Shown here: positions 5,072-26,135 of the stretch, piece after piece
Layout of the letters: each line of letters starts with the position of its first letter
How positions within the stretch are numbered: position 1 is the stretch's first letter
Source of the DNA: Thermoplasmata archaeon
GTDB lineage: Archaea; Thermoplasmatota; Thermoplasmata; Lutacidiplasmatales; UBA184
Length of the DNA stretch: 64,000 nucleotides
Direction: 5' to 3'
NCBI GenBank assembly: GCA_046704665.1
Contig: JBJKRJ010000048.1
Location: 28,829-92,828, forward strand
Notes under the pieces: model-generated
Database searches by the model: none
Told to the model about the DNA's origin: nothing
Seen by the model: the letters and a program-made list of their open reading frames with translations, nothing else
Program-made: the position numbers and the translations under genes

Positions 5072-5086
5072 GGTCCGACCGACGGT

Positions 5087-8046: not shown

Positions 8047-10083
8047 TCACCGAGCCCGGCGGCTCGCGCGTCTTCCCCGGCTCCGCAACCCGACTCCCTC
8101 CGCAATCGCGGTCCACCGGGGGTCCGCCCGGACCTTGCCGTACCACTGTTCCGAGTTGAAGTCGAAGACGTTGTGGGCGCGCTGACGGACCGCCTCGGCG
8201 AGGTGGTCGAACGCTTTCGCGGGTCGGCCGAGACCGAACTCGACCTTCGCCCAGCAGGCTTTCGAAAGGTACCCGCGCTTCGACCGTTCGTGGAGCAGGT
8301 CGAGGATCGCGATCGCCTCGTCGGTCCGGCCCTCGGAGCCGAGCACGAAACCGAGCTCGGCGAGGAACTCCGGTTCGTTCTCCGACAGCGCGACGCCCTT
8401 CCGGAGCTCCCGGAGCGCCGGATCCACGTGCGACTGGAGATACAGCGCGAACCCCAGATAGAGGTGGGCGGCGGCATAGTCGGGGTTCGCTTCGATGAGC
8501 CGGCGCAACTGTCGCTCGCCCTCCTCCAGCCTTCCGAGGGCGATCAGCGCCACGCCCATGTCGAGGTTGATGACCCGGGAGAGCGGGTCGAGTTCGTGGG
8601 CCGTCTGGATGTGCGAATAGGCCTCCTCCCGCCGCTCGGGGAACTGGATCAGGAAATGCACGCCGAACCACTGATGCACCGTCGCGTAGCTCGGCCCGAG
8701 CTCGATCGCGCGAAGGAACTCCTTCTCCGCCTCCGACCACTTCCAGCTGTAGTTGGTATACACGAGCGCCAGCGTGGCATGCGCTTCCGCGATCCGAGGA
8801 CGGAGCTCGATCGCTCGGCGGGCGAACCGTATCGCGAGCGGGAACGTTGCGTCCGGCTGTTCCCATCCGTAATCGCCGGCGATGACGTGGCAGTCCGCGA
8901 GTCCCGCGTAGGCGAGCGCGAACCCGGGGTCGAGCGCGGTCGCCTTTTCGAGGTAGGCTATCGCCCGGTCGTTGCCCGCCCGGGTCCGCTCGTTCCAGGC
9001 GTGTCGGCCCTTGAGGTACATGGCGTACGCTTCGACGTTGTCCGTGGCCGTCCGCTCGAGGTCGTCCCGTTCGATGGCGAGGAGACGCACCCGGAGCGCT
9101 TCCGCGACGCTGCGCGCGATCTCGGTCTGGATCGCGAACACGCTGTCCAATCGCTTGTCGAAGTCGCGGGACCAGAGGTACTCGTCGGTCCGGGCGTCGA
9201 CCAGCTGCGCGGTCACCCGGAGCGTGTCCGCCGCGATACGGACACTGCCTTCGAGCACGGCCCCCGCCCGCAGGTCCGCCGCGATCTCCGGGACGCTCTT
9301 CGTCGTGTCCTTGTAGCGCATCACCGAGGAGCGGGAGATCACCCGCAGCCCTCCGATCCGGGAGAGTGTCGAGATGAGCTCCTCGGTCATGCCGTCGGCG
9401 AGGTACTCATCCCCGGGGTTGGGGCTGATGTTGCGGAAGGGCAGCACGGCGATCCGGGTCCGGTCCCGGTCGACGGGGGGCGGCGTCCCCTTCTCCCAGG
9501 GAACCTCGACCCGGAACACCTCGATGGGAATACCGACGTTCTTCAGCTCCCGCTTGCCGAGGGTCGAGATCGGAAGTCGGAGCTTGTTGCGGACCTGTGT
9601 GTAGACCTGTTCGGAGACGCAGATCCCCTCGGGCTCGGCGAGCGGTTCGATGCGCGACGCGATGTTGACCGCATCGCCGAAGACGTCGCTCTTGTCGTGG
9701 AGGACGTCGCCCAGGTGGATGCCGATGCGCAGCCGGATCCTCCACTCCTCCGGGGACGAGAGGTTGTAGTCGTGGAGGAACTGCTGGACCTCGATCGCGC
9801 ACTCGGTCGCTTCGAGGGCGCTCTGGAACTCGACCAGGAACGAGTCGCCGATGGTCTTCACCTCCTTCCCCGCGTGCTTCGAGAAGATCGGCCTGAGGAG
9901 GCGGGCGTGGCGTTTGAGCACGGACATGGCCCGTGCCTCGTTCGCCTGGGTCAGCGCCGTGTAGCCGACCATGTCGGTGAACATGATGGCGGCGAGGCGG
10001 CGCGTCGGCGGCACGGTCCGGGGACTCAGGTTCTCTGAATTAAGCCCTCCGAATTCGCCCTCCGCGGCCGGAAAGAGGGGCAT
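8047..10083 (-). CDS. Class III adenylate/guanylate cyclase with C-terminal TPR repeats.
   Basis: Cyclase catalytic domain (RRLAAIMFTDMVGYTAL..TIGDSFLVEF..GIHLGDV) followed by TPR-like repeats. The track ORF extends to 10266 but would run through the tRNA. The first ATG downstream of the tRNA is 10083-10081, which shares one nucleotide with the tRNA 3' end. An alternative start is ATG 9984. Confidence 0.7.
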   Translation of the reverse strand: MPLFPAAEGEFGGLNSENLSPRTVPPTRRLAAIMFTDMVGYTALTQANEARAMSVLKRHARLLRPIFSKHAGKEVKTIGDSFLVEFQSALEATECAIEVQQFLHDYNLSSPEEWRIRLRIGIHLGDVLHDKSDVFGDAVNIASRIEPLAEPEGICVSEQVYTQVRNKLRLPISTLGKRELKNVGIPIEVFRVEVPWEKGTPPPVDRDRTRIAVLPFRNISPNPGDEYLADGMTEELISTLSRIGGLRVISRSSVMRYKDTTKSVPEIAADLRAGAVLEGSVRIAADTLRVTAQLVDARTDEYLWSRDFDKRLDSVFAIQTEIARSVAEALRVRLLAIERDDLERTATDNVEAYAMYLKGRHAWNERTRAGNDRAIAYLEKATALDPGFALAYAGLADCHVIAGDYGWEQPDATFPLAIRFARRAIELRPRIAEAHATLALVYTNYSWKWSEAEKEFLRAIELGPSYATVHQWFGVHFLIQFPERREEAYSHIQTAHELDPLSRVINLDMGVALIALGRLEEGERQLRRLIEANPDYAAAHLYLGFALYLQSHVDPALRELRKGVALSENEPEFLAELGFVLGSEGRTDEAIAILDLLHERSKRGYLSKACWAKVEFGLGRPAKAFDHLAEAVRQRAHNVFDFNSEQWYGKVRADPRWTAIAEGVGLRSRGRRASRRAR

Positions 10084-10181
10084 GCTCCCGGCGGGATTCG
10101 AACCCACGTCGGAGGGTATCCTCGGCGTCCGAAGGGCGCCTCGAAGGCCCTCTATCCTTGACCGGACTAGACTACGGGAGC
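10083..10181 (-). tRNA. tRNA with a ~24-nt intron in the anticodon loop. Best fit is tRNA-Glu(UUC); anticodon assignment is tentative.
   Basis: The reverse complement is GCUCCCG-UA-GUCUAGUCCGGUCAAGGAU-A-GAGGG-CCUUCG[AGGCGCCCUUCGGACGCCGAGGAU]A-CCCUC-CGAC-GUGGG-UUCGAAU-CCCGC-CGGGAGC-A. It has a perfect 7-bp acceptor stem and a T-arm with the GUUCGAAUC loop. The D-loop resembles archaeal tRNA-Glu/Gln. The 5-bp anticodon stem GAGGG/CCCUC is interrupted by an insert, as expected for an archaeal bulge-helix-bulge intron near position 37/38. No CCA is encoded. Confidence 0.7.
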
Positions 10182-10262
10182 ATGGGGCCGCCGGCCCGAG
10201 CAGTCGGTCCGAGGCTTGAAGTGTTGCCCCGGTCCCCGGCGGAGAACCCCCGAATCCCGAGG

Positions 10263-10997: not shown

Positions 10998-11773
10998 CCG
11001 AATCTCCCGGTGATGTACTCCTGCGAAAGCCGTTCCCTGGGTCGCTCGAAGAACTCCTCCGTCGGGCCCTCTTCGATGAGCCGCCCCTGGTAGAGGAACG
11101 CGGTCCGGCCCGCGACCCGGGCCGCCTGCTGCAGATTGTGGGTCACGATAATGACGGCGAAATCGGCGCGGAGCTCGGTCAGGAGCTCCTCGACCCTCTG
11201 CGCCGCGATCGGGTCGAGCGCGCTCGTCGGCTCGTCGAGCAGCAGTACCCGCGGCTCGATGGCGATGGCCCGTGCGATGCACAGCCGCTGTTGCTGCCCG
11301 CCCGACAGCTCGAGCCCGGGGCGACGGAGGTTCCCCTCCAGTTCGTCCCAGAGGCCCGCCCGGCGCAACGAGGAGACCACGGTACGCTCGACCGTATCCT
11401 CGTCCGTGCGCAGTAGGCGTAGACCGAACGCCACGTTCTCGTAGATCGAAAGGGGAAAGACGGCCGGCCGCTGAAAGACCATGCCGATCCGCTGGCGGAC
11501 GAGCACCGGGTTCACCGCCGGCGAATAGATCTCCTGCCCCCGGTAGCGGACCGAGCCCTTCACGGTGAGGTTCCGGCTGGTCTCGACCATCCGGTTGAGG
11601 GTGCGGATGAGGGTGGTCTTGCCGCAGCCCGACGGCCCGATGATGCCGGTCACCTGCTTATCCGCAAAATCGAGCGAGATATCGGAAAGTATCACCCGGT
11701 CCGGGGCACGCACCGTGAGGTGCTCGACGCTCAGGACGGGCGGTTCGAGGCCGGACGATCCGTTGTTCATCAT
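10994..11773 (-). CDS. pstB: Phosphate ABC transporter ATP-binding protein PstB.
   Basis: Walker A GPSGCGKTT, signature LSGGQQQRLCIARA, Walker B LLLDEPTSALD. Start at the MM pair (ATG 11773) overlapping the pstA stop. Confidence 0.9.
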   Translation of the reverse strand: MMNNGSSGLEPPVLSVEHLTVRAPDRVILSDISLDFADKQVTGIIGPSGCGKTTLIRTLNRMVETSRNLTVKGSVRYRGQEIYSPAVNPVLVRQRIGMVFQRPAVFPLSIYENVAFGLRLLRTDEDTVERTVVSSLRRAGLWDELEGNLRRPGLELSGGQQQRLCIARAIAIEPRVLLLDEPTSALDPIAAQRVEELLTELRADFAVIIVTHNLQQAARVAGRTAFLYQGRLIEEGPTEEFFERPRERLSQEYITGRFG

Positions 11774-12690
11774 TCGTAGAGCCCCCGCAAGCGTCGCCGG
11801 TACCGATCGGAGAGGATCTGCACCGCAACATTCAGTGCGAGTATGATCACGAAGAGCAGGAACGCGGCCTGGAACGCGAGCGTGAGGAACGAGCCCAGGC
11901 TCTGCGGGAAGTCGTAGAAGCTCCAGATGGCCCCGGAAAGGAACGCGGTCTGGTCCAGCAGCCCGCTCACCGGGGTCGAGCTCCACCCGGCGGTGTAGAT
12001 CAAGAGCGAGGCCTCGCCGAAGCCCAGCGCCATCGCGAAGAAGACGCCGGTGAGGATCGTCGGGAGCGCGATGGGGAAGGCGATGCGCAACAGGTACTGG
12101 TGCCGTCGGCTCCCGACCGCCAGGGCGGCCTCACGCTGGGCGGCCGGGACCGAGCTGAGGGCGACATCCGTGGTCCGGTAGATGTAGGGCGTCATGAAGA
12201 TCCCAAGGGTGATCCCGCCGGCGAGCACCGTGTATCCCCAGCCCGTATACAGCACGAGCAAAAAGTAACCGAAGTAGCCGAGCACGATGGCCGGAACGCC
12301 GGCCAGCACATTGCCCGCGATGCGGGCGAGCCGGGCTACGCGCGGCGGGGCGTATTCGCTCGTGTAGAAACCCGCCACGAGTCCGATCGCCGAACCGAAG
12401 GCGGTCGCGAGCCCGATGAGGACGAAGGTGCCGATGATCATCGCATAGAGCCCTCCGCCGAACCCGACCTGGTTCTCCGTGAGGGTTCCGATCGAGAAGG
12501 TCGGCAGTGCCTTGGCCGAGATCCAGTAGACCATGTCGCCGAGCGGCACGAAGACCGCCGCGAACGCGAGAAGGAGCGCCCAGCCGATCACCCGGTCAAA
12601 GGCCAGACGTCGGCGGAGCCGACCGGAAGGGACCAGAAGCTCGTGGTCCGGGATCGGGGCCGGTGTCCCTCGCACGATGGCGGAGGTCAC
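11770..12690 (-). CDS. pstA: Phosphate ABC transporter permease PstA.
   Basis: 306-aa polytopic permease with the ABC transmembrane EAA-type loop. It lies in operon order and overlaps pstC by 4 nt. Confidence 0.85.
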   Translation of the reverse strand: MTSAIVRGTPAPIPDHELLVPSGRLRRRLAFDRVIGWALLLAFAAVFVPLGDMVYWISAKALPTFSIGTLTENQVGFGGGLYAMIIGTFVLIGLATAFGSAIGLVAGFYTSEYAPPRVARLARIAGNVLAGVPAIVLGYFGYFLLVLYTGWGYTVLAGGITLGIFMTPYIYRTTDVALSSVPAAQREAALAVGSRRHQYLLRIAFPIALPTILTGVFFAMALGFGEASLLIYTAGWSSTPVSGLLDQTAFLSGAIWSFYDFPQSLGSFLTLAFQAAFLLFVIILALNVAVQILSDRYRRRLRGLYE

Positions 12691-13709
12691 CGTCGCACCT
12701 CCCCCAGGGTCGTCGCGGTCGCAACCTCCGTGTGGGAGAGGATCTGGGCGAGGACATTGACCACGACGGTGATCACGAGGAGCACGAGGGCGATCTCGAC
12801 CAGGAACGTGAGAAGATCCGGCAGGACGAGCGCACTGTCGAGCTGATAGAAGATGAAGGCGGCCATGGTGGTCGACTGGGAGTACAGGCTTCCCGGGACC
12901 TTCGGCACTCCGCCGATGACCATCGCGACCGCGACGCTCTCGCCGATGGCGCGGCCGAATCCCAGAAGGATGGCGCTCCAGAGACCGAGGCGGGCGTAGC
13001 GCATACGCACCCGGCGCGTGACCTCCCAGCGCGTGCTCCCCAGCGCGAGCCCGGCGTCCACGAGTTCGCGGGGGACATTACTGAGGGCATCGCGCATGAG
13101 CGCGGTCGTGAGCGGAATGATCATGACCATCAGGAGGAACACGGCGAGGAGGATCCCCCAGGCACCGATCGCTGAGGTCGGGCCCCCGAATCCCGGTATC
13201 CAGAACAGCACGTCTCGCAGCGCGGGCTCGACGGTCAGCCCGAAATAGGGACCGACGATGACGAACCCCCAGATCCCGACGACGACGCTCGGGATCCCGG
13301 CGAGCAGGTTGGTGACGATCGTCAGGATGCGGCCCGGGAGAGAGGGGAGATACGCGACGATCGAGATCGAGATCGCGAGACTGAGGGCGGTCGCGAGGAT
13401 TAGGGAAAGGCCCGCCGTGAGCGCGCTGCCGAGGACGTAGGTCCCGATCCCCCAGCTCGAACCGGCGTAATCGTTGGGAATGAAGTTGTAGTAGATGCCC
13501 CAGAACGTGGCTCCAAAATTGTGCAGGTGGCTCGCATAGAGCAGGACCGCAGTGACCACGCCAATGAGGATGAGCGGGAGAAGCGCGATCGGGCTGGTCA
13601 CCCAGGCCCGCCAGTCCCGGCCGCTCGTCCCCTTGGGCGAGGGGGAAGGAGGGGGCGGAGGGACCGAATCCCCCGCCCCGGGAACGGGTTCGCCGTCGGC
13701 CGATTTCAC
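12687..13709 (-). CDS. pstC: Phosphate ABC transporter permease PstC.
   Basis: 340-aa permease paralogous to pstA, located directly downstream of pstS. Confidence 0.85.
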   Translation of the reverse strand: MKSADGEPVPGAGDSVPPPPPSPSPKGTSGRDWRAWVTSPIALLPLILIGVVTAVLLYASHLHNFGATFWGIYYNFIPNDYAGSSWGIGTYVLGSALTAGLSLILATALSLAISISIVAYLPSLPGRILTIVTNLLAGIPSVVVGIWGFVIVGPYFGLTVEPALRDVLFWIPGFGGPTSAIGAWGILLAVFLLMVMIIPLTTALMRDALSNVPRELVDAGLALGSTRWEVTRRVRMRYARLGLWSAILLGFGRAIGESVAVAMVIGGVPKVPGSLYSQSTTMAAFIFYQLDSALVLPDLLTFLVEIALVLLVITVVVNVLAQILSHTEVATATTLGEVRR

Positions 13710-13731: not shown

Positions 13732-14976
13732 CTAGGTCGAGCTCGTGGGCACGGAGCCCAGGGCCTGGATCGTGTACCCCACGACCTCCGCCGTCAGCGG
13801 GAGGAAGTGCGCGGACGCCGCGTACTTCGCCCCGTGCAGCAGCGCCCAGGTCAGGAACGTCACGACCCATGTCTGGTGGGACGCGCTGTGCGGGCTCGTC
13901 GAGATCAGGAGGTACTCGAGGTTGGTGTCCGGATACGGGTGCACGCCGGCGGGGGCGAGGGTCCCGCCATGCCCCAGCTGCAGGTTGGTCGCGCCCGGTA
14001 CGCCGCCGAGGATCAAGCTGATCGCGACGCTCGGTGGCTGGAGGTTCACCAGCGCAAGGTTCGCATCCGCACTGATGTTCTGGGGCGTGGGCAGGATGTA
14101 GTTCGCCTGACCGGCGCCGCTCGCGCTGACCGTCCCGTTGATGTTCGCGTTCTGGTCGCCGAGCGCCGCATACGGGAGGTTGTCGGCCTGCATCTGGGCG
14201 AGGTAGCTGATCCCGATGTACGCGATCCCGTAGGGGGTGTTGTGCAGTCCCGTGACCATGCCGGAGTTACCGGACTCACCCGTGCCGACCGGCCAGGTGA
14301 TCGTGGTCGCATAGCCCTGCTTCCATCCGGACCAGGACATGTAGCACAGCGACGTGAACAGGAACGTGTCGCCGCTGCCATCCTGCCGGTGGACCGTCTG
14401 GATCGTGTTCGACGGGAGGTTCACCCCGGGGTTTGCCGCCTGGATGAGCGGGTCGTTCCAGTGCGTGATCACGCCCTGGTAGATCATCGCAAGGACCGTC
14501 CCGTTCAGGTTGAGGTGGCCCGAGATCCCCGGAAGGTTGTAGGCGACGAGCTGCGAGGAGATCGCGATGGGCACGTTGATCAGGTGGTGGGCCGTCGCGT
14601 TGTCGGTAGTGAGGTAGCCGTCGGTCCCGCCCACATCCACGGTCCCCGCGATCGCGGAGCTGATACCCGTGCCGCTGCCCGTAGACGCCGGCGAAAGGTG
14701 CACGTTCGGATAGAGCGACGTGAAGTTCGGCGAGAGGATCTGGAGGTACGGAAAGATCAGGCTCGACCCCGTCTCCGTGATGGTGACGGACGACTTGGAC
14801 GCGCCCGCCCCATAATAGTCGCCGACGGCGAATCCGGCCCCGATCCCTACGAGCAAGAGGACGACGGCGATCGTGATGACGATGCCGGCCCCCAACATAC
14901 GTCGTCGGGACCCGCGGGGCGTTGGGCCCGTCAGGCGGTCGTTCGGCGTCGGTGGGCTCGCTCCGGAACTACTCAT
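13732..14976 (-). CDS. pstS: Phosphate-binding protein PstS (secreted or lipid-anchored).
   Basis: 414-aa ORF with an N-terminal membrane anchor and the PBP superfamily phosphate-binding fold. It is the first gene of the pst operon. Confidence 0.85.
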   Translation of the reverse strand: MSSSGASPPTPNDRLTGPTPRGSRRRMLGAGIVITIAVVLLLVGIGAGFAVGDYYGAGASKSSVTITETGSSLIFPYLQILSPNFTSLYPNVHLSPASTGSGTGISSAIAGTVDVGGTDGYLTTDNATAHHLINVPIAISSQLVAYNLPGISGHLNLNGTVLAMIYQGVITHWNDPLIQAANPGVNLPSNTIQTVHRQDGSGDTFLFTSLCYMSWSGWKQGYATTITWPVGTGESGNSGMVTGLHNTPYGIAYIGISYLAQMQADNLPYAALGDQNANINGTVSASGAGQANYILPTPQNISADANLALVNLQPPSVAISLILGGVPGATNLQLGHGGTLAPAGVHPYPDTNLEYLLISTSPHSASHQTWVVTFLTWALLHGAKYAASAHFLPLTAEVVGYTIQALGSVPTSST

Positions 14977-17351: not shown

Positions 17352-18149
17352 GTGCCGTCGCCCGAGCCCGGTCAGTTGCGGCTTGTCCGGGGGGATGCCC
17401 GTCGGCCGGACCGGCTGCGGGAGCGGTCGGTGCACCTGGTCGTCACCTCTCCTCCGTACCCGATGATCCCTCAGTGGGACGCGCTCTTCCGTGCCCTGGG
17501 GGCGACCGATTATCCGGGAATGCTGAGGGTGCTCTCGGACGCCTGGCGGGAGTGCTACCGCCTGCTCGTCCCGGGGGGGATCCTCGCCGTCACCATCGGC
17601 GATGCGCTCCGCTCGGACCGGGGCGAGTTCCGCCTCTGGCCGAACCATGCCGAGACGCTGGTAGCCGCGACCTCCGCGGGGTTCACGCCTCTTCCGTACC
17701 TCCTCTGGAAGAAGCCGACCAACAAACCGAACGCGTTCCTCGGCTCCGGGTTCCTCCCCCCGAACGCCTACGTGACACTCGACTGCGAGTTCATCCTATT
17801 GTTCCGCAAAGGCTCGCTGCGCCGGTTCGCCGCCCACGACCCGGCCCGCGCGGCGAGCCGGTTCTCACGGGAGGAGCGGGACCGCTGGTTCTCCCAGATC
17901 TGGTCGGATGTCCGGGGCGCGCCGCAGGGTTCGGCCGGCGGACGCACCGGGGCGTTCCCGGACGAACTCGCCGAACGCCTCGTCCGGATGTTCTCGGTCG
18001 TCGGGGATACCGTCCTCGACCCGTTCGCCGGCACCGGTACGACGCTGTGGGCGGCGCTCCGTTGGGGCCGTCATGCGGTCGGGATCGAGTGGGACCCGGA
18101 GGTATTCCGACGGCTCAGGGCGACGGCGCGGGCTCGGGGCTACCGATAG
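17352..18149 (+). CDS. DNA methyltransferase, beta-class (SPPY motif, probably N4-cytosine or N6-adenine).
   Basis: Motif IV VVTSPPY lies near the N-terminus and the AdoMet motif I DPFAGTGTT near the C-terminus. This permuted order is typical of beta-class amino-methyltransferases. Confidence 0.8.
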   Translation: MPSPEPGQLRLVRGDARRPDRLRERSVHLVVTSPPYPMIPQWDALFRALGATDYPGMLRVLSDAWRECYRLLVPGGILAVTIGDALRSDRGEFRLWPNHAETLVAATSAGFTPLPYLLWKKPTNKPNAFLGSGFLPPNAYVTLDCEFILLFRKGSLRRFAAHDPARAASRFSREERDRWFSQIWSDVRGAPQGSAGGRTGAFPDELAERLVRMFSVVGDTVLDPFAGTGTTLWAALRWGRHAVGIEWDPEVFRRLRATARARGYR

Positions 18150-18687
18150 TAGGCTCGGGAGTCTCTTCGGTCGGCTCCGGGGACGGTGGCAATGGGGGCG
18201 GCCGCGCACGGCGGGGAGGAGGCGGTGAACGGTGGGCGATCTCCTCCTCGACCGCCGCTCTGAGGTACCGGAGGGCCGAGTCGCTGAGCCGGTCCATGTG
18301 CAAGAGCAGGTAGTGGAGATAGAGCCGCTCCGGACGATGGGAGGGTCCGGGAGGCCGGAGGGGACGGCCCTCCGCGTCGACCGGGGGTTGATGGCGCTCC
18401 AGCGTCTCCCGATGGTGCTCGTGCGCCTTCCCGTGGAACTCCCGTCCTGTCGGACCGACGAGCGGAGGGTAGAGGAGACCGATCGGGTCGTCCGGGTCCG
18501 AAAAATCGGGGTCCGGGACCGTGGGCGGTACCGGCTCGGCGTTCTTCTTGCGGAGGTAGGGATGGACGGGCCGTGCGGGGTCCTGGAGCTCCGAGATCGG
18601 TCGCCCGGCGACCTCCTCGACGATCGTCTTCAGGTTCCAGCTCGCCCGGCGGCGGGCCGGACCGTCCGCGGTGGCCTCGTCGCCCAC
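18115..18687 (-). CDS. Hypothetical protein, last gene of the transfer-like operon.
   Basis: 190-aa ORF starting 55 nt downstream of the VirB4-like gene on the same strand. Amino-acid composition is protein-like (contains K, Y, H, F), whereas the opposite-strand ORF is Arg-rich. No recognisable domain. Confidence 0.3.
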   Translation of the reverse strand: MGDEATADGPARRRASWNLKTIVEEVAGRPISELQDPARPVHPYLRKKNAEPVPPTVPDPDFSDPDDPIGLLYPPLVGPTGREFHGKAHEHHRETLERHQPPVDAEGRPLRPPGPSHRPERLYLHYLLLHMDRLSDSALRYLRAAVEEEIAHRSPPPPRRARPPPLPPSPEPTEETPEPTIGSPEPAPSP

Positions 18688-18741
18688 GGAAGGCCACCGG
18701 CGGCTTCGGCCGTATAAACCTCGCTTTCGACGGGCAGACGG

Positions 18742-20406
18742 TCAGCCCGGGGGCCGTGGGTCCTCTCCGAGGGTCCGGGTGAGAAGCTCGTACTCGGGGG
18801 TCGAGGCGACGATCGCGAGGGGCAGGTGGAGCTCTCCGACCCGCCAGAGCGATTCGGAATAGCCGGCCTCCCGCGGGAGACGGGCCTTTGGGAGCCACTC
18901 CGCCTCCGCGGTCGTCAGGCCGAAGAAGTCGCGGCAGGCGCCCGAGACCTCCGGGAGCCGGAGGAAGGCACTCGCGTAGAGGTTCCGGAGGAGGGAACGG
19001 CCGGCGGCATGCCCGAGGAAGTCGTCCGGGTTCTGGCTCAGGAGAAGCACCCCGGCCCCGAAATGGCGGAGGTGGCGCACGACCCGGTCCAGGAACTCGG
19101 CGGTCGCGATGTGGTGCGTGAGGAGGTGGGCCTCGTCGATCAGGAGGAGCTTCGGCCCCGGCCTTCCCCGGAGGCGCCCGTACGCCCAGTCGAGCAGATA
19201 GGCGAGGTGGAACGGGAGCTGGTCCTCGGCGACCCCGCGGAAGTCGACGGAGACCGGCCCGTCGGCCAGGGCGAGGGTGGTCGGCCCGTTGAGGGTTCGG
19301 AGCGAACCGGAGCGGAAGACCTCGAGGAGCGTGGCGAGCCGGTCGGCGGGACGTCCCGGCTCGTCGAGGAGTCGGTAGAGCTCCTCGAACGTCGGCCCCT
19401 CCCCGCCCTCCGCGTAGAGCCGGGAGACGGCCGTGTCGAGCCGGGCGGCCTCCTCGTCGCGCAGGCTCGGAAACAGGGCGCGGAGCATCGCCCCGACGCG
19501 GGCCGCCTTCTCCCGGCGGTCGCCCCCGGTCGTCGCGGGGTCGAGCGGGTTCAGCCGGCCTGCGTCCGCCTCCGCGAGCCTAACGACCGAACCCCCGAGC
19601 GCGCGGACGAGCGCTCCGAACTCCCCAAGCGGGTCGAGGATCACGAGGTCGGTCTCGGGCCGCAGCCAGCGCGTTCGGAGCGCGAGCAGGGCCGCCGAGA
19701 ACGACTTCCCCGATCCGGTCGTTCCGAAGATCGCCCAGGAGTAGCTCGCGTGGTCCCACCGGTCGAGGAAGACCGGGCTCGCGTCGGAGAGGGCGAGGCC
19801 GACCAGCACGCCGTTCGATTCGAGGACCGTCTCGTCGGCGAACGGGAAGAGGGCGGCGATCCCGTCGGTGGGAAGCGTCTGCCAGTAGCCGGACGGACGG
19901 GACGACGCGGGGTGGAACTCGGGGGCTGCCATCGCCTCCCGGACCTCGTAGCGGGGGATCCTCGTGCGGAATCCGAACGTCGTGAGACGCTCCGAGAGGC
20001 GGGTACGCAGGGCCTCGAGCCGGGGCCGTGAGGAGGAACGCACCGTCCAGCGGAGACCGACCTTCCAGAGCTCCTGCGTCCTACGGGCCACGGCGCGGCC
20101 GAGCTCCTCGGCGGAGTCCCGCTCGATCTCGAGCTCGGCCGCGCGGCCCCCCGGATCCCCCGCGCGCAGCTCGGCCTCGGCCACCGCGCGGGCGCCGTGG
20201 AGGATCTCGAGGGCGCGGACCGGCGGGATCCGGTGCGCCTCGACCCAGAGCTCGACCGGTTCGGTCGTCGTGAGGACGCGCCCCAAGAACCCGAATGGGA
20301 GCTCGGGAGGGAACTGCCGGATCAGGACCGGGGCCCGGTAGTGGCGACCGATGCGGATCCAGCTGGCCCCCTCCACCGCCCGAGGGATCGACGGGCGCGC
20401 CGTCAT
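18742..20406 (-). CDS. VirB4/TrbE/CedB-like conjugation-type ATPase.
   Basis: Walker A FGTTGSGKSF and Walker B LLLIDEAHLL. The N-terminal domain has the VirB4-like pattern YRAPVLIRQFPPELPFGFLGRVL. Start ATG at 20406-20404 overlaps the stop of the upstream small membrane gene (ATGA). The longer track ORF N-terminus is R/P-rich and discarded. Confidence 0.75.
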   Translation of the reverse strand: MTARPSIPRAVEGASWIRIGRHYRAPVLIRQFPPELPFGFLGRVLTTTEPVELWVEAHRIPPVRALEILHGARAVAEAELRAGDPGGRAAELEIERDSAEELGRAVARRTQELWKVGLRWTVRSSSRPRLEALRTRLSERLTTFGFRTRIPRYEVREAMAAPEFHPASSRPSGYWQTLPTDGIAALFPFADETVLESNGVLVGLALSDASPVFLDRWDHASYSWAIFGTTGSGKSFSAALLALRTRWLRPETDLVILDPLGEFGALVRALGGSVVRLAEADAGRLNPLDPATTGGDRREKAARVGAMLRALFPSLRDEEAARLDTAVSRLYAEGGEGPTFEELYRLLDEPGRPADRLATLLEVFRSGSLRTLNGPTTLALADGPVSVDFRGVAEDQLPFHLAYLLDWAYGRLRGRPGPKLLLIDEAHLLTHHIATAEFLDRVVRHLRHFGAGVLLLSQNPDDFLGHAAGRSLLRNLYASAFLRLPEVSGACRDFFGLTTAEAEWLPKARLPREAGYSESLWRVGELHLPLAIVASTPEYELLTRTLGEDPRPPG

Positions 20407-20780
20407 CCGCCTCCGATCGGACGGACGGGCCCGGAGGGCCGACGCCGTTCCGCAAGCCAGAGCGGCACGACCGCGAGCGTCACGAGGAGGCCCCGGAACG
20501 GGAGGAGCTCCGCGCCCGGATATCCATACACGAACGCTCCGCCGGCGAGAAGGCCCAGCGCGAGGAGGCGGTCGGGACGGACGAGCGCGGTCCATCCTCC
20601 TCCCCGACGGGCGATCATCGAAGCCCAGCCCGCCAACGCGAGCGCGGCGAGGGTCCCCGCGAGCGCGGCGAGGAACGGCTCGAGCACCGAGAGCGCCCCG
20701 GCCACCAGGCCGACGCCCATCGCGCTCCCGAAGACTTCGAACTCCATCGGGGGGAACCGGACGGACCGGGGGTCGGTCAT
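20403..20780 (-). CDS. Small membrane protein (about 3 TM helices), VirB3/CedA2-like by position.
   Basis: 125 aa and hydrophobic. Its start and stop both overlap the neighbouring genes, indicating translational coupling immediately upstream of the VirB4-like ATPase. Confidence 0.5.
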   Translation of the reverse strand: MTDPRSVRFPPMEFEVFGSAMGVGLVAGALSVLEPFLAALAGTLAALALAGWASMIARRGGGWTALVRPDRLLALGLLAGGAFVYGYPGAELLPFRGLLVTLAVVPLWLAERRRPSGPVRPIGGG

Positions 20781-21559
20781 TCCCTTGCCTCCGCGGCCGA
20801 CCAGCCGATCTCACGGGCGGCCTCGATCAGTCCCCGACCCCGCAGGCGCACCGGCCGAAGGCCGAGGTTCGTCAGCCGCTCCTCGAGCGAGACGATCTCC
20901 GTCTCGAGCCGAGCCCGGGCCTCGGCGCCCCCCGAGCCGACGCCGACCACGAGGTAGATCTTCCGCCGGAACCGACGACGACAGAGCAGTCCGACGAGCT
21001 CCGAGTAGCCGGCACGCGCGGGGGCCTCCTCGCTCCGGCGGTCTTCGGGGGCGGGAAGGAACGGTGCGGTCCGGATCGATCCCAGTGTCGCGAGGAAGGC
21101 GATGCGTCCGTCGGTCGCCCGGAGGAGCTCGCGGAACAGCTCGAACCGACGGGCGAGGTCCGAGGGAGGAAGATAGGTGATCGGAATGCCTCCGGTCCGG
21201 ACGACGGCGACGTGGTCGGCCGGTCCGAGCTCCAGAAGACCGCTCCGCGCGGACCGTCCCGGGCGAAGGCCGCTCAGGAGGATCCCTCCCGCGGTCGCGT
21301 GCCCTTGCCATCGGAGGAAGGCGAGGAGGCGCTCCTCCCAGGACCGGCCGTCCGGACGCCAGACGGCGGCGACGAACCCGACGGCCACGACCGCGAGTCC
21401 CGCGGGGAGGCTCGCGAGCTCGGCGAGCGCCGCCCCCGCCGCGGCGTAGCAGAGGAACTTGAGGGCGTCCTGGGCCGAAGGGAACGGTCCGAGCCGAAGG
21501 CGACGGTCGATGCGCTCCGGGAGCGCGACCACGGGGAGGCCGTCCGCACCGGCCGCCAT
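20777..21559 (-). CDS. Membrane-anchored protein (N-terminal TM plus soluble domain), possibly VirB8-like.
   Basis: Start placed at ATG 21559-21557, 4 nt after the stop of the upstream gene. The track ORF start at 21655 would overlap the upstream gene by 92 nt. There is one hydrophobic helix (FLCYAAAGAALAELASLPAGLAVVAVGFVAAVW) followed by a ~200-aa soluble region. Confidence 0.45.
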   Translation of the reverse strand: MAAGADGLPVVALPERIDRRLRLGPFPSAQDALKFLCYAAAGAALAELASLPAGLAVVAVGFVAAVWRPDGRSWEERLLAFLRWQGHATAGGILLSGLRPGRSARSGLLELGPADHVAVVRTGGIPITYLPPSDLARRFELFRELLRATDGRIAFLATLGSIRTAPFLPAPEDRRSEEAPARAGYSELVGLLCRRRFRRKIYLVVGVGSGGAEARARLETEIVSLEERLTNLGLRPVRLRGRGLIEAAREIGWSAAEARE

Positions 21560-21563
21560 CCCA

Positions 21564-22724
21564 TCACGAACCTCCCTTACGGATCGGACCCCACCGCTTC
21601 GCTTCGGACGGGCGACGCGTCGGTCCCGGCGTGGAGCCGCCGGTCTTCCGCGCATTGCGGGTGACGTGGCGCAGTAGGTGAAGGGCCCCCCGGCCGATCA
21701 GCTCGCCCGCCGCGAGAGGGGCGGCGGCGGGAAGTGCCGCGGACCCGGCGGCCCGCACCGTCCCCGAGATCGTGGAGCCGATCGCCCCGCTCGTGCGTGC
21801 GCTCTCGGCGATCGGCCGGAAGCGTGCCACGGCACCCGAGGGGGCCGCCGCGCCCCCGCGCGTGACCGCGCCTCCCATGGTGGCTCCCGCGCCGGGGAAG
21901 CCGAACGAGACCAGTTGGGTGCCGGCGAGCGAGAGCAGGTACGGGGAGGCGACAGCGGCGCTGAGGTACCCGACGAGGAGGACCGGGTTCGGACTGCCGA
22001 CGGCGAGCTCGAGCGGGACCACGAGGACGCACGGCAAGAAGACGAGCTCGACGAACAGGAGCCAGGCGCGGCGGGCGAGGGTCGAGAGCGGGCGGAGGGG
22101 CCAGAGAAGGGTGAAGATCGGTAGCACGACCAACAGCACGGCGAGGAGGGCGTCCCGGACCCCGATCGCCAGGATGAGGGCGAAGACCGCCAGGAACTCG
22201 ACCACGGCCAGAAGGAAGGCGAGCGCGCCATTGTCCCACGAATAGCGGAGCTCTCCCCAGCCGGCGAGGTGGACCCACTGCTGCCAGGCCCCCCCGTCCC
22301 AGCCGGCCATCACCGGGAAGAGGGCGCCCCCCACGGAGAGGAGCGCCGCGGCGATCGGCACCGTGAAGTTCGCGCCCACCACTCCGACGACGAGCCGGGG
22401 CAGGAGCGAGTCGAACGTCGCGGCCCAGCGGGCGACGAGCGGCTTCGCGAGGTAGAGGCATGCGATACCGAGGGCGAGGAGGGTCGCCGCCGGATCGACG
22501 ACGTTCGCGAGCGTGTATGTCGAGAAGTGGGCTGCCGTCGCGAGGTAGTTCGAGGGGTCCGACCCGGGGGCGAGGACCGACGGATAGAGCGCCCCGACCT
22601 TGAGCTCGGGCACGAGGAGGTTGTCGTACGTCGGCCCGGTGATCGCGACCACGATCGCCGTGAGATCCGCGAACAGGGCGAACAGGATCGCCCGGATGAC
22701 CACCGTCCAGTCGATGCCGAGCAC
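21564..22724 (-). CDS. Polytopic membrane protein, VirB6/TrbL/CedA-like by architecture.
   Basis: 386 aa with at least 7 hydrophobic segments. The alternative-frame ORF 21577..22743 is R/G-rich and rejected. Confidence 0.55.
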   Translation of the reverse strand: MLGIDWTVVIRAILFALFADLTAIVVAITGPTYDNLLVPELKVGALYPSVLAPGSDPSNYLATAAHFSTYTLANVVDPAATLLALGIACLYLAKPLVARWAATFDSLLPRLVVGVVGANFTVPIAAALLSVGGALFPVMAGWDGGAWQQWVHLAGWGELRYSWDNGALAFLLAVVEFLAVFALILAIGVRDALLAVLLVVLPIFTLLWPLRPLSTLARRAWLLFVELVFLPCVLVVPLELAVGSPNPVLLVGYLSAAVASPYLLSLAGTQLVSFGFPGAGATMGGAVTRGGAAAPSGAVARFRPIAESARTSGAIGSTISGTVRAAGSAALPAAAPLAAGELIGRGALHLLRHVTRNARKTGGSTPGPTRRPSEAKRWGPIRKGGS

Positions 22725-22739
22725 CGCGTGCCTCCGCGC

Positions 22740-23159
22740 TCACGAGCCCGTCAGCACCCAGTGGGCCAGCCCCCAGAACAACCCCGTCACCGCGGCGGTG
22801 AAGAGCAGCGTCCCGACCAGCGCGTCGCGGGCCCGGTCCTTCGCCTGCACCTTCTTCGTGATGTCGTTCGAGAACCAGCTCAACGCGACGCGGGCCCAGA
22901 CGAGGGCGAGGATCCCGCCTCCGGCGAGCCCGACCAGATCGACGAGCCGGTTGATCGCCGCGGTGAAGTTCCCGACGGCGGAGGAGGTTCCGGTCACCGA
23001 GGCCCCGTGGACCGCCGGTGCGACCGCGGTGGCGCCCGCCGTCCCGCTCGACACGATGAGAAGAAGGACGAACCCTACCGCCGTGGCCATCGCCGGGGAG
23101 GGCGCCCGCCGGCTACCATCCGCGAGCCGACCGGCTAGGAAACCTCGCGGGGAGACCAT
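22740..23159 (-). CDS. Pilin-like small membrane protein (VirB2/TrbC/CedA1-like).
   Basis: C-terminal 116-139 aa of the track ORF (start ATG 23159 or 23090). It has a leader, two hydrophobic helices (AVGFVLLLIVSSGTAGATAVA.. and ..LVGTLLFTAAVTGLFWGLAHWVL) and a basic loop KKVQAKDRARD. Confidence 0.5.
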   Translation of the reverse strand: MVSPRGFLAGRLADGSRRAPSPAMATAVGFVLLLIVSSGTAGATAVAPAVHGASVTGTSSAVGNFTAAINRLVDLVGLAGGGILALVWARVALSWFSNDITKKVQAKDRARDALVGTLLFTAAVTGLFWGLAHWVLTGS

Positions 23160-25402
23160 GCGTACACCTCCTCTCCGTCGGCGCCGGTTTCGCTCCGCAG
23201 GCGTCCCTCGCTGACCAGCCGCTCGAGGGTGGCCCGGGTCGTCGGGAGGGAGACCCCGGCCTCTTCGGCGAGCAGTTCGACCGTGGCCCGGTCGATCCCG
23301 TCCGCCGGTTCGATGATCCGACGGAGGACCGTCACCGGCTCGGGGGCGGGAGGCGGCGGGGTGCGAGCGCGCCCGCGGCGGCGCCGGTACCACGCGAATC
23401 CCCCGACCGCCACGAGGACGAGGGTCACGATGCCGCCCACCTCGGCCGTGACAGCGGCTCCCCCCGTACCGGCCGCGGAGGCCGCCGGGGGCGACGGAAC
23501 CGTGGGAGGCGGGGAGTCCGAGGGAGGCGAGCCCGGAGCGACGGTCGGGAAGTGGACGGTCGCGTTCTCGGACCACCGGACGCCGAGACGGTCGACGACC
23601 ACGATCTCCTCCCGTACGTTCCCCGTCCCGTTGGTCGGCCAGGACCAGGAGTACGACCCGTCCAACGGTGCGGAGGCGTTTCCCTCGGGCCGGGAGGTCG
23701 AGTTCGCCCAGAGGGCGAACGGAGGCAGACCCCCCTCCAGGGTAAGATTCAGCACGAGGGACGGGCTTGGATCTCCCGGCACCACCGTCAGCTGGCCGGA
23801 CACTTCGAGGGGAGCCACCAGCTTCAGAGGTCGGTCCGTCCACCAGAACGCTCCCCCCGAGTCGATGACACCGACCGTGATCGAGGAGTTCCCTTCGTAG
23901 GGAAGGGTGCCGGTCCACTCGAACCCTGAGACGACGGAGAGGTTCCCTTCGGGAGTCGAGCTATTGGCCGGTGGCAGACCCGGCACGACGAACCAGAGGA
24001 ACGGAGCGACGCCCTGAGTGACGGTTCCCGTGAGGAGGACCGTGGGACCGGCGGCCCGGATCGAGCACGAGACCGTAACCGAGACGTTCAGCGCCCCATC
24101 AACCGCGAGCTGGGCGGAGGAGTTGCGGACCTCGAAGCCCAGCGCATCTTCGACGACGACCGAGACCCCGAAGCTCCCGGATACGGCAGGGTCGACCGGG
24201 ACGAGCAGGGTGCCATCGGTGGACAGTGTGGTGTGCGAACCGTTCGCGTCTCCCTCCAGGCCCCACTGCACGTGGAACGGCGGGACACCCCCGGACACCT
24301 CCACCGCGACGATGGCCGGCTGTCCGACCTCGGTCGAGGGGTCGGGGAGGTGCACTCCGAGCCCGAGCGAGGAACGCACCGGGAGGGAGAGGGTGGCGGT
24401 CGCCGGAGGGGGCGTGCCGCCGGACGGGACCACTTCGAAGGTGATCTCGGCGCTCCCCGGGGAGGCGAACGCACAGCTGAAGTTCTCCGTCGGTCCGCTC
24501 GGGGTGGGACCGGAACGGAAGCCGGCCGCCGCCACGGGACGCGCATCGGAGCAGCTCGTCGCCTCGCTGTAGAGGCTCGGAGGATCGAGGATCCGTCCGC
24601 GGAAGGCGACCGACGCTCCCACCTCCGTCGAGTACCGCGCACTTTCGATCCCCACGGCGAAGTTCGAGCTCGAGTATTCCGGCTCGACCACCGACCCGTT
24701 CGTGGTAAGCCCGATCGAATCCACGACCGAGATCGTGGGAGCGAAGGTCCCCTCGGGAAAGCGGTGCGGTATCGTGAACGCTCCCGGGCTCGTGAAGTAG
24801 AGCTCCGAGAACGCTCCGTCCCCCCAGGTGACCCGGACGCGGTAGGGTGGCGTCCCATCGATCAGGGAACCGGTCAGGTTCACGGTCGAACCGACGGGGG
24901 CCGGATCGGTGTCGAAGGCGAGCGGACCGAGTTGCGGCGGAACAACGACCGTGACGTTCGCGGTCGCGCGCTGAACGTCCGCGCTCTCTCCCGTCCCACA
25001 GTGGACGACGGTCGCCGACCGCACTTCGACTCGGGCGACGCCGGACGAGGCGCCGTACGCCGTGAAGTGGGTGATCGAGGTGTCGAGGGGGCCGAGCGCC
25101 CCCTCGGCCCAACCGGCGAGTACGGACCATCGGAACGAGACGGGGGTGTTCGTGCATCCCGGCGGAATGCCCGACCAGGTCGCCACGAACGCGGTCGAGT
25201 TCCCGGCCACCATCCACCACGACGTGGGGGCAACGGACAGCTGGGGAGCCGCGGGTGCGGCCGAGCCGAGGAAGGGAGCCGAAACGGGAGAAGGAGGGAA
25301 GACGACCGGGGAGCTCCACGCTCCCAGCAGGATCCCGAGCACCAGCGCGGCGGGGAGACCGGCGGCCCCGCAGAACCTCGGAACGCACTTCTTCGGCGAC
25401 AC
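23135..25402 (-). CDS. Large secreted, heavily N-glycosylated surface protein with a C-terminal TM helix and a cytoplasmic winged-helix domain.
   Basis: Signal peptide MSPKKCVPRFCGAAGLPAALVLGILLGAW. About 18 N-x-S/T sequons and repeated beta-rich Ig/PKD-like segments (..PPYRVRVTWGDG.., ..PPFHVQWGLEGD..). A Pro/Ser-rich stalk precedes the TM helix GGIVTLVLVAVGGFAWY and RRRRGRAR. A ~70-aa wHTH-like tail follows (VLRRIIEPADGIDRATVELLAEEAGVSLPTTRATLERLVSEGRL). Confidence 0.65.
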   Translation of the reverse strand: MSPKKCVPRFCGAAGLPAALVLGILLGAWSSPVVFPPSPVSAPFLGSAAPAAPQLSVAPTSWWMVAGNSTAFVATWSGIPPGCTNTPVSFRWSVLAGWAEGALGPLDTSITHFTAYGASSGVARVEVRSATVVHCGTGESADVQRATANVTVVVPPQLGPLAFDTDPAPVGSTVNLTGSLIDGTPPYRVRVTWGDGAFSELYFTSPGAFTIPHRFPEGTFAPTISVVDSIGLTTNGSVVEPEYSSSNFAVGIESARYSTEVGASVAFRGRILDPPSLYSEATSCSDARPVAAAGFRSGPTPSGPTENFSCAFASPGSAEITFEVVPSGGTPPPATATLSLPVRSSLGLGVHLPDPSTEVGQPAIVAVEVSGGVPPFHVQWGLEGDANGSHTTLSTDGTLLVPVDPAVSGSFGVSVVVEDALGFEVRNSSAQLAVDGALNVSVTVSCSIRAAGPTVLLTGTVTQGVAPFLWFVVPGLPPANSSTPEGNLSVVSGFEWTGTLPYEGNSSITVGVIDSGGAFWWTDRPLKLVAPLEVSGQLTVVPGDPSPSLVLNLTLEGGLPPFALWANSTSRPEGNASAPLDGSYSWSWPTNGTGNVREEIVVVDRLGVRWSENATVHFPTVAPGSPPSDSPPPTVPSPPAASAAGTGGAAVTAEVGGIVTLVLVAVGGFAWYRRRRGRARTPPPPAPEPVTVLRRIIEPADGIDRATVELLAEEAGVSLPTTRATLERLVSEGRLRSETGADGEEVYAWSPREVS

Positions 25403-25478
25403 TACCGCCCACCGTCATGGGCGGTGGTACGCGCGAGGTATTTCCACCGCCATCGGTCGGCGGAGGATGGATGCTGGC

Positions 25479-26135
25479 TCAGTAGTCGACGAGGAGGGCC
25501 ACGTGCTCGCGGGAGAACGGAGCGATCGCCGTCTCCGAACGCACGCTCGCCCCCTCGCTCCGGATCGCGTCGCGGGCCGCTCGGACGATCGCCGCGGACG
25601 GGCCCCGTTGGGTGACGGAACGGACCTTGAGCATGAGCACTCCCGATCGCCCCGGCGCGAGGCAGGCGCGGGCGTTCTCGATGAAGATCTGGGTCTGGTT
25701 CCGCTGCGCGACGTCCTGATAGAGGAAGTCGACCGAGCCGACGTCCGCCCGGTACCTCTCGGGGAGCTGGGCGTCCGCGAGGATCGGCAGGACGTTCGAC
25801 CGCCGGCGGGCGAGCGCGAGCAGACGGGGGAAGGACGTCGGGCTCTTCTCCACGACGAAGAGCGATGCCTCGGGCCAGAGATCGGAGAGGTGGCTCACGG
25901 TCGTTCCGTGCGCTCCGCCGAGATAGAGCGCGCTGCGCACGCCGTTCAGGGTACGGGCGGGGGCTCCCCGGAGCAGCCACGCGGCGAGCTTCGAACGGAA
26001 CGGGTCCCACTGACGATACTCGATTCCAGCGACGGTCCGCAGGGTCTCGCCGTAGACCCGGACGCCGGGGGTCGCGTTGACGGTGTAGAGGTCCCGGCCT
26101 TCCCGGAACACGCCGCGGGCGCTCGTCGGCTCCAC
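25479..26135 (-). CDS. flpA: Fibrillarin-like rRNA/tRNA 2'-O-methyltransferase.
   Basis: Strong family match: VRVYGE..YRQWDPFRSKLAAWLL..LYLGGAHGTTVSHLSDL..NVLPILADA..DVAQRNQTQI.. Confidence 0.9.
   Translation of the reverse strand: MEPTSARGVFREGRDLYTVNATPGVRVYGETLRTVAGIEYRQWDPFRSKLAAWLLRGAPARTLNGVRSALYLGGAHGTTVSHLSDLWPEASLFVVEKSPTSFPRLLALARRRSNVLPILADAQLPERYRADVGSVDFLYQDVAQRNQTQIFIENARACLAPGRSGVLMLKVRSVTQRGPSAAIVRAARDAIRSEGASVRSETAIAPFSREHVALLVDY

Follow-up and report, generated by a model that had tools for sequence, protein, structure and literature searches.

The archaeal Ced and Ted systems are derived from type IV secretion systems (T4SSs) and serve the exchange of chromosomal DNA (PMC9905601). 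In the Sulfolobales, different parts of the VirB4 N-terminal domain reside on two proteins, CedB and CedD, and homologues of VirB3 have been stated to be absent in archaea (PMC11868833). The stretch of DNA analysed here, 64,000 nucleotides of contig JBJKRJ010000048.1 from a Thermoplasmata archaeon (hereafter the window), carries on the minus strand, at positions 18115-25402, a cassette of seven co-oriented open reading frames, g1 to g7, of which no published description was found in the literature searched. Apart from Ced and Ted, no chromosomal derivative of a T4SS has to our knowledge been characterised in archaea; both move DNA and both are limited to hyperthermophilic Thermoproteota. We propose that the cassette encodes a domesticated, minimal T4SS of the mating-pair-formation type FATA (MPF-FATA), which has a fixed chromosomal place in a clade of high-GC Thermoplasmata from soil and peat. 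On balance, its most likely task is to transfer chromosomal DNA among conspecific cells, probably by importing it.

The seven reading frames were found exactly where the original prediction, made from the letters of the window alone, had placed them, and independent gene calls on a 101,813-bp NCBI contig agree precisely for g1 and g3 to g7 (755, 386, 260, 125, 554 and 190 aa). Third-position GC amounts to 0.82-0.93 in the proposed frames; the window, marked as archaeal by its fibrillarin gene, has a GC content of about 70% (0.66-0.74 along its length, 0.70-0.74 in the cassette), and close homologues of its proteins stem from metagenome-assembled genomes of soil and peat origin labelled Thermoplasmata archaeon. 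When compared with a relative carrying an 87%-identical ATPase, all seven cassette genes have ratios of nonsynonymous to synonymous substitution rates (dN/dS) of 0.13-0.36, and flanking housekeeping genes have 0.09-0.16 in the same comparison. The cassette genes are thus real, constrained genes under purifying selection. They are tightly packed: the predicted ATGA overlap couples the 125-aa gene g5 to the ATPase gene g6, a second ATGA joins g4 to g5, and g3/g4 and g2/g3 are spaced by 4 and 15 nt, respectively. A GGAGG motif lies 5-10 nt before the start of every gene from g2 to g6, none is present before g1 or g7, and TATA-like elements precede these two in its place. Because the TATA box of g7 is conserved and a Shine-Dalgarno sequence is lacking there, the locus is probably organised as a six-gene operon, g1 to g6, followed by g7 as a separate transcription unit. 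The seven-gene operon originally proposed therefore holds for g1 to g6 but not for g7, and the overlaps or spacings below 25 nt ascribed to it are present throughout except for the g6-g7 gap, which measures 54 nt.

The most firmly placed component is g6 (18742..20406, minus strand), an ATPase of 554 aa without any transmembrane segment. As predicted, it belongs to the VirB4 family and contains both Walker motifs, A (GTTGSGKS, residue 228) and B (LLIDEAH, residue 421). Its residues 15-475 align with positions 202-684 of the 752-position NCBIfam model conju_CD1110 (1.6e-39), and further matches are to VirB4_plasma (2.2e-27) and TIGR00929 (1.5e-14), while HerA models score 5.5e-4 or worse; all these scores lie below the equivalog cutoffs, so that membership is assigned at the level of the VirB4 family only. 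Grouping with HerA or FtsK, which would have spoken against the prediction, is not what the profile scores indicate. The NCBIfam model for CedD is matched around the P-loop only (3e-9, 36 bits versus a cutoff of 600). The closest solved structure is that of Thermoanaerobacter VirB4 (PDB 4AG5, 5e-12), the best plasmid-borne relatives are haloarchaeal and Firmicutes VirB4 proteins with 25-28% identity, and NCBI annotation names some of the cassette ATPases 'VirB4 family type IV secretion system protein'. What g6 lacks are the first ~200 residues of a canonical VirB4.

These residues appear to be encoded, at least in part, by g4 (20777..21559, minus strand). The 260-aa protein starts with the motif LPERxDRRLRLGPFPSxxDALKF, which is followed by a transmembrane hairpin and then an alpha/beta domain. 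The most frequent Pfam family among its relatives is PrgI, the VirB3 of monoderm systems, which was recovered below threshold for 18 of 61 members (best E 0.008). Furthermore, in a set of 179 VirB4 relatives the g4-family profile finds ~40 long VirB4 proteins (700-1100 aa), in each of which it covers roughly residues 1-250 at the N-terminus, and these matches are colinear with g6: in P0199, residues 50-248 correspond to g4 positions 52-251 and g6 aligns from residue 268. The profile likewise runs colinear with the N-terminal ends of PrgI-VirB4 fusions. Profiles for g2, g3, g5 and g7, used as controls, gave no comparable matches in the same set. In the distant locus L035, the g4 homologue weakly matches positions 125-199 of VirB4_plasma and the neighbouring short ATPase matches positions 289-829. 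A search with the g4-family profile against all PDB sequences yielded nothing usable; VirB4 was the top structural match of g4 in two structure searches. We conclude from these matches that g4, in all likelihood, unites a VirB3-like membrane anchor with the initial portion of the VirB4 N-terminal domain, and that the VirB3-VirB4 unit is therefore split over two genes. Together with the PrgI::VirB4 fusions of Thermoplasmata elements described below, the PrgI-like module of g4 argues against a general absence of VirB3 from archaea. The VirB8-like role first suggested for g4 had to be given up, as there were zero matches to VirB8 and VirB4 came first among the structural matches.

Between the two parts of the split unit lies g5 (20403..20780, minus strand), a small membrane protein of 125 aa with about four hydrophobic segments and ATGA coupling on both sides. 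It had been taken for a VirB3-like protein with three transmembrane segments, an assignment that was rejected: PrgI or VirB3 signals are lacking, there are four rather than one or two transmembrane segments, and no Pfam or NCBIfam family was matched. The protein is poorly conserved (42% mean column identity in the family alignment; dN/dS 0.28), and genes of the same size occupy its position in the distant loci L031, L032 and L035. It is an unassigned protein specific to this lineage.

The pilin expected of a T4SS is represented by g2 (22740..23159, minus strand). Its start is most likely the ATG at 23159, which is preceded by GAGGAGG and yields a protein of 139 aa whose gene overlaps g1 by 25 nt; an alternative start lies at 23090. 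A signal peptide and a variable linker are followed by a mature part of ~75 aa comprising two hydrophobic helices with the basic loop KKVQAKDRARD between them. This mature part is near-invariant in the clade and still shows 61-64% identity where the ATPase shows only 43%, and the N-F-[ST] sequon at its beginning is invariant in the family alignment. PF18895 (T4SS_pilin) is the top Pfam family, below threshold, in 6 of 21 g2 members, reaching E=0.0015 for the homologue in L032, and the g2-family hidden Markov model (HMM) matches the pilin of L035 at 3.8e-21 (66 bits), which in turn has a strong precomputed PF18895 match. The original description as a VirB2-like pilin with a leader and two hydrophobic helices is supported by these PF18895-linked matches, which place g2 among VirB2-type pilins (PF18895/PF04956). 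The g2-family profile matched no PDB chain at E<=10 and thus none of the solved CedA1/TedC pilins, among which the structure of Aeropyrum pernix CedA1 is expected to be present (PMC9905601).

For the polytopic 386-aa protein g3 (21564..22724, minus strand), a VirB6/CedA-like identity had likewise been suggested. Direct Pfam scans of g3 found no family, precomputed PF19590 hits of its homologues were not reproduced in our own Pfam scan at E<=1, and the g3-family profile returned nothing usable from all PDB sequences. The assignment is carried by profile-profile alignment: with hhalign the g3 family aligns over 190 columns with two TrbL_3-annotated proteins of Thermoplasmata conjugative elements (probability 89%, E 2.3e-6), the region in common being R-D/LP...LWP...R..W.LF.E..FLP. 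This alignment and HMM matches lend moderate support to g3 as a VirB6/TrbL-like putative channel subunit. With a pilin, a VirB6-like channel and VirB3-VirB4, the cassette encodes a minimal VirB4-based T4SS of the monoderm (MPF-FATA) kind, and this anatomy as a whole is well supported.

The setting of this machine in the chromosome is highly conserved. On one side it is flanked by genes for fibrillarin (25479-26135), RidA and DUF885, on the other by genes for an N6/N4 methylase, HPS/RraA and TruA and by the pst operon. The housekeeping flanks initially listed as hem, pst and flpA are correct with regard to fibrillarin and the pst operon; hem genes were not confirmed, the only candidates being an amine-oxidase/protoporphyrinogen-oxidase-like protein and a class-III aminotransferase. 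The order DUF885-RidA-fibrillarin-[g1..g7]-methylase-HPS/RraA-TruA-pst is identical in 27 GTDB species representatives and in L001, L003 and L038, scored wherever the contig reaches, that is, in ~30 genomes with ATPase identities down to 57%; a complete 2.18-Mb chromosome and a 1.8-Mb contig are among them. Synonymous divergence (dS) of the cassette (0.47-0.77) is similar to that of the flanks (0.36-0.73). Because of the fixed synteny and a dS like that of the flanks, the cassette is best regarded as chromosomal and vertically inherited.

Mobility functions were not found near it. Across the 64-kb window, tblastn with three archaeal type IV coupling proteins (T4CPs) hit the P-loop region of g6 only, none of the 27 window proteins scanned matched relaxase- or T4CP-like Pfam families, the other scanned genes encoding metabolic enzymes or transporters, and no integrase homologue was present. 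Att-like direct repeats flanking the cassette were not found, the sole tRNA gene of the window lies 8 kb away beyond the pst operon, and no relatives of the cassette were found on viral contigs. The absence of relaxase, coupling protein and integrase initially noted thus holds for the window, and neither a variable site nor an atypical composition was seen. It is conceivable that the cassette is a part or decaying remnant of an integrated conjugative element (ICE) whose mobility genes lie outside the window or were recently lost: distant relatives are found in ICE-like contexts (L035 with integrase, AbiEii and T4CP; L037 with T4CP), and a DNA methylase adjoins the cassette. We consider this explanation very improbable, as it would have to accommodate the same insertion site and flanks in all the syntenic genomes, dS equal to that of the flanks, purifying selection on seven genes and a GC content like that of the rest of the window. 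From these comparisons an ICE or ICE remnant is essentially excluded, the synteny in particular being a strong argument against it, in keeping with the chromosomal location originally proposed.

Beyond the syntenic clade, two loci with ATPases of 39-44% identity (L031 and L032) have the same cassette gene order plus one extra gene. Their cassettes lie between a class-Ib tRNA synthetase and glycosyltransferases, a site that is common to both and differs from that of the main clade. The extra conserved gene, located between the ATPase and the g7 homologue (L031 11712-12248; L032 11731-12288), encodes 178-185 aa without any family match. The nearest ATPases outside the cassette family belong to archaeal elements and share 29-33% identity. 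In two of these, L034 and L036, a TrbL_3 protein is followed by a PrgI::VirB4 fusion of 856-898 aa and a T4CP, and the VirB6-VirB3-VirB4 order of the cassette matches this arrangement; L037 contains a short VirB4 and then a T4CP. A separate outgroup locus of archaeal or bacterial origin, L035 (43% GC), encodes in order a Big-domain surface protein, a pilin, three pilin-domain fusions, a VirB6-like protein, a g4-like protein, a 138-aa protein and a short VirB4. T4CP genes are thus present in all four outgroups, L034 to L037. In the neighbourhood of a haloarchaeal plasmid VirB4 (L033), no further cassette proteins in common were found. The simplest reading of these relationships would be that an ancestor of the Thermoplasmata concerned captured a conjugative element of this type, that the coupling protein and whatever genes for DNA processing it had were then lost, and that the remainder has passed vertically from generation to generation.

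The pilin region of L035 merits a remark of its own. The pilin gene is followed, at 2908-6126, by genes for three proteins of 339, 326 and 406 aa, all of which terminate in a two-helix domain resembling a pilin (E values of 1e-16 to 2e-6 with the pilin profile). They give the impression of a pilin array whose members, minor or tip pilins, bear sizeable ectodomains at the N-terminus.

The operon opens with g1 (23135..25402, minus strand), the gene for a surface protein of 755 aa with a signal peptide, a PKD/Ig-like ectodomain, a transmembrane anchor and a cytoplasmic winged-helix tail. A glycosylated surface protein with a winged helix-turn-helix had been predicted, and 16 N-X-S/T sequons, the N-terminal signal sequence, a transmembrane segment at residues 648-666 and the winged-helix-like tail agree with this. 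The tail (residues ~700-755) gave sub-threshold matches to winged-helix families in all eight homologues tested, including those of the distant L031 and L032, whose g1 proteins comprise ~1790 aa versus 755 aa in the window and have strong PKD matches. Nothing usable was obtained when the single g1 sequence was compared with all sequences of the PDB. The protein is the fastest-evolving of the set, with 27-47% identity among relatives versus 57-78% for the ATPase and a dN/dS of 0.36. Upstream of the gene, the region 25438..25463 (minus strand) is the putative promoter of the g1-g6 operon: a TATA-like AAATAC at 25438-25443 is preceded immediately upstream by an imperfect GC-rich palindrome, CCGCCGACCGATGGCGG, at 25447-25463. 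In the equivalent regions of most related loci (L003-L025), a cAAATAcC box is found ~35 nt before the g1 start, with palindromic GC-rich elements just upstream. The palindrome could be an operator, conceivably one for the winged-helix tail of g1.

At the other end of the cassette, g7 (18115..18687, minus strand) encodes a soluble, proline-rich protein of 190 aa with two conserved segments, RRRxSWSLKxIVEDVAGRP near the N-terminus and RLYLHYLLLHMDRLSDSALRYLRxAVEEE near the C-terminus. As had been noted before, it has no known family; Pfam, NCBIfam and PDB searches all remained without a match. Homologues in L031 and L032 share 31-35% identity, and the dN/dS of g7 is 0.13. Its TATA box TTTATA (18713..18718, minus strand, within cgAAAgcGAGGTTTATAcgg) is situated 31 nt upstream of the GTG start codon, and the motif recurs at the same distance in ~19 related loci while the surrounding intergenic sequence is variable; the g7 transcript is therefore probably leaderless and made from its own promoter. 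One close relative, L006, has ~1.5 kb inserted between the ATPase gene and the g7 homologue (11656-13201). The neighbouring gene (17352..18149, plus strand) runs towards g7, shares 35 nt with its 3' end and encodes an orphan N4/N6 DNA methyltransferase with a TSPPY motif (Pfam N6_N4_Mtase 4.5e-33). Wherever the contigs of close relatives extend far enough, it again adjoins the cassette, with 61-80% identity; it is absent next to the distant cassettes of L031 and L032, and is accompanied by no adjoining restriction enzyme in the window. Its membership in the cassette is uncertain.

What might such a machine do? In T4SSs, as exemplified by the structures of R388, VirB6 forms a membrane channel beneath which VirB3 anchors VirB4 hexamers, and VirB4 pulls pilin subunits out of the membrane and powers the growth of the pilus. 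Transferred to the cassette, g3 would form the membrane channel, g4 and g6 would rebuild a membrane-docked VirB3-VirB4 motor, and g5 would serve as a lineage-specific membrane adaptor. The pilin g2 would be exported by Sec, processed by signal peptidase and probably N-glycosylated, after which the motor would pull it from the membrane and polymerise it into a conjugative-type pilus. On the cell surface g1 would act as adhesin or partner-recognition factor, and its winged helix, tethered at the inner face of the membrane, could bind DNA or, alternatively, regulate the operon, so that g1 may couple partner recognition outside to DNA handling or operon control inside. The sequence comparisons show the gene content, the family assignments, the VirB3-VirB4 split, the fixed synteny, the purifying selection and the lack of mobility genes in the window; that a pilus is formed, that it handles DNA, which way transfer would run and what g1, g5 and g7 contribute is inferred. 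We favour the exchange of chromosomal DNA because a pilus/channel/VirB4 core is present without coupling protein or relaxase; lacking these two, the canonical conjugative export of a mobile element would be impossible. The charge of the pilus lumen was considered as an additional argument for DNA and was dropped, since according to the literature it does not discriminate.

Several points weigh against chromosomal DNA exchange. Genes for HerA, Rad50, NurA and ParA are absent from the locus, unlike at Ted loci. Genes for a coupling protein or a relaxase may lie outside the window, elsewhere in the genome. The family assignments of g3 and the pilin depend on sub-threshold or transitive matches, and the predicted structure model of g3 was of too poor a quality for a fold test. 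Moreover, relaxase-less chromosomal T4SSs with other roles exist: those of the Patescibacteria are required for epibiotic growth (PMC12102498, PMC12857230), and cmdABCDEF of Streptomyces affects sporulation (PMC2782261).

The Patescibacteria systems lend substance to the alternative that the cassette is a domesticated T4SS with a role other than DNA transfer, be it as an adhesive or biofilm pilus, in the secretion or uptake of proteins or other molecules, or in contact-dependent interactions. They are chromosomal, derived from MPF-FATA, and possess PF18895-type pilins and a PrgI-like protein but no relaxase (PMC12102498). A large adhesin-like PKD protein as first gene of the operon would suit such a role, as would the weak NCBIfam match of g1 to PamR, a protein of a pilus system of the candidate phyla radiation (CPR) (7e-7, far below cutoff), and the lack of DNA-repair genes at the locus. 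On the other hand, the closest outgroups are DNA-conjugation elements with T4CPs, the host genomes of 1.8-2.2 Mb bear no sign of an epibiotic lifestyle, and the winged helix of g1 and the adjoining methylase both hint, if weakly, at DNA. DNA is also what Ced and Ted transport, the sole characterised derivatives of this kind in archaeal chromosomes. A non-DNA role appears rather unlikely, yet it is the main rival explanation.

Clearly less probable still is an intracellular VirB4/VirB6-type membrane complex whose task, in the manner of Cmd, would lie within the cell itself, in segregating the chromosome, in division or in building the envelope. It is suggested by matches of g4-family members to the SCO6880 family (21 of 61 members, best E 0.0013), SCO6880 resembling CmdC of the VirB4-containing cmd cluster, and deletion of cmd disturbs both sporulation and chromosome segregation (PMC2782261). 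The fixed place of the cassette in the core genome beside fibrillarin would fit as well. However, the SCO6880 matches are sub-threshold, and a highly conserved secreted pilin together with a large glycosylated surface protein points to an extracellular appendage and to cell-cell contact. Exchange of chromosomal DNA therefore stays our preferred function for the cassette. We can go one step further, albeit tentatively, and regard it as plausible, if not quite probable, that this is a third, independently domesticated archaeal T4SS for chromosomal DNA exchange, one that would be without precedent outside the Thermoproteota and among mesophilic archaea of soil and peat, with an architecture not described elsewhere. 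Distinctive parts of this architecture would be the VirB3-VirB4 split into a membrane-bound N-domain protein and a soluble ATPase, the adhesin with its tethered winged helix, and the conserved, cytoplasmic and separately promoted g7.

Should this be correct, a widespread lineage of uncultured archaea, abundant in soil and peat, would possess conjugation-like exchange of chromosomal DNA as one of its core traits, passed on vertically, and the use of a conjugation machine as a cellular organ of DNA exchange would extend to another phylum and to mesophiles. The gene set could be used for testing recombination in uncultured archaea. As a natural 'split VirB4', the g4/g6 pair bears on the docking of VirB3, of the VirB4 N-domain and of the ATPase ring to VirB6 channels when the envelope has no outer membrane, and the PrgI-like module of g4 contradicts the published absence of VirB3 homologues in archaea (PMC11868833).

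Three observations elsewhere in the window deserve mention. The phosphate-binding protein PstS (13732-14976, minus strand) shows 30-70% identity among relatives whose neighbouring genes reach 82-94%; with 34% identity and a dN/dS of 0.83 versus the closest relative, it may be a replaced paralogue or evolve unusually fast. The tRNA-Arg(TCG) gene (10082-10182, minus strand) comprises 101 nt, ~25 nt above the standard, and probably contains an archaeal intron. In the archaeal protein encoded at 8047-10038 (minus strand), the catalytic domain of a class III adenylate/guanylate cyclase occurs together with numerous TPR repeats.

Among known systems, the MPF-FATA conjugative T4SSs, including those of the archaeal elements L034, L036 and L037, share with the cassette the core families VirB6-like, VirB3-like and VirB4 in the same order; PrgH-PrgI-PrgJ of pCF10 belongs to the same kind of system. 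Unlike the cassette, these archaeal elements carry a coupling protein of 950-1140 aa directly after VirB4, have PrgI and VirB4 fused (856-898 aa) and lack fixed chromosomal synteny. The cassette in turn has no T4CP, a split VirB3-VirB4 with g5 inserted, and an added pilin, adhesin and g7.

The T4SSs of Patescibacteria are similar in being chromosomal, derived from MPF-FATA and exapted from conjugation, with PF18895/VirB2-like pilins, PrgI and, in most clusters, no relaxase (PMC12102498). They differ in being bacterial, linked to epibiosis and essential for growth on the host, and in having pilin arrays, and VirB3-VirB4 fusions were not reported for them (PMC12102498). With cmdABCDEF/SCO6878-6881 of Streptomyces the cassette has in common a conserved chromosomal operon, a short VirB4-like ATPase and several membrane proteins; that system is bacterial, affects sporulation and chromosome segregation, and no pilin or adhesin has been described for it (PMC2782261).

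Like Ced, which comprises CedA, CedA1, CedA2, CedB, CedD and CedE (PMC9905601, PMC11868833), the cassette appears as a domesticated T4SS-like machine in which the VirB4 N-domain is divided over two proteins: CedB and CedD in the one case, g4 and g6 in the other. Yet CedB and CedD are both HerA-clade ATPases, many of them with transmembrane helices (PMC11868833), whereas here g6 alone possesses an ATPase domain, which is of the VirB4 clade and lacks transmembrane helices, and g4 is a non-ATPase membrane protein. The CedA1 pilin is unprocessed, whereas g2 has a signal-peptide-like N-terminal segment, and a CedA1-type pilin was not recovered in the PDB profile search. Ced genes are dispersed, induced by ultraviolet light and dependent on Ups pili; here a single cassette is present.

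Ted, with TedA, TedB and TedC (PMC9905601), resembles the cassette in being a chromosomal, T4SS-derived archaeal system without relaxase, whose parts include a true VirB4-clade ATPase, a polytopic protein resembling VirB6 and a VirB2-like pilin made with a cleavable Sec signal peptide. By profile scores, the correspondence between g6 and the TedB-type ATPase exists at the level of the clade only, and the PDB search with the pilin profile gave no match to TedC. The hosts differ as well, mesophilic soil and peat Thermoplasmata on the one hand and hyperthermophilic Thermoproteales of another phylum on the other. HerA, Rad50 and ParA of the Ted neighbourhoods are replaced here by fibrillarin, RidA, methylase and HPS as neighbours, and the genes form one tight operon with a split VirB3-VirB4, a winged-helix-tailed adhesin, g5 and g7. 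Of the Ced/Ted-type machine originally envisaged, the T4SS core without mobility genes has been recovered and DNA import is a reasonable analogy, but no sign of membership in Ced or Ted was seen; judged by the published descriptions of both systems and the pilin search against the PDB, the cassette would be analogous to Ced and Ted and a member of neither.

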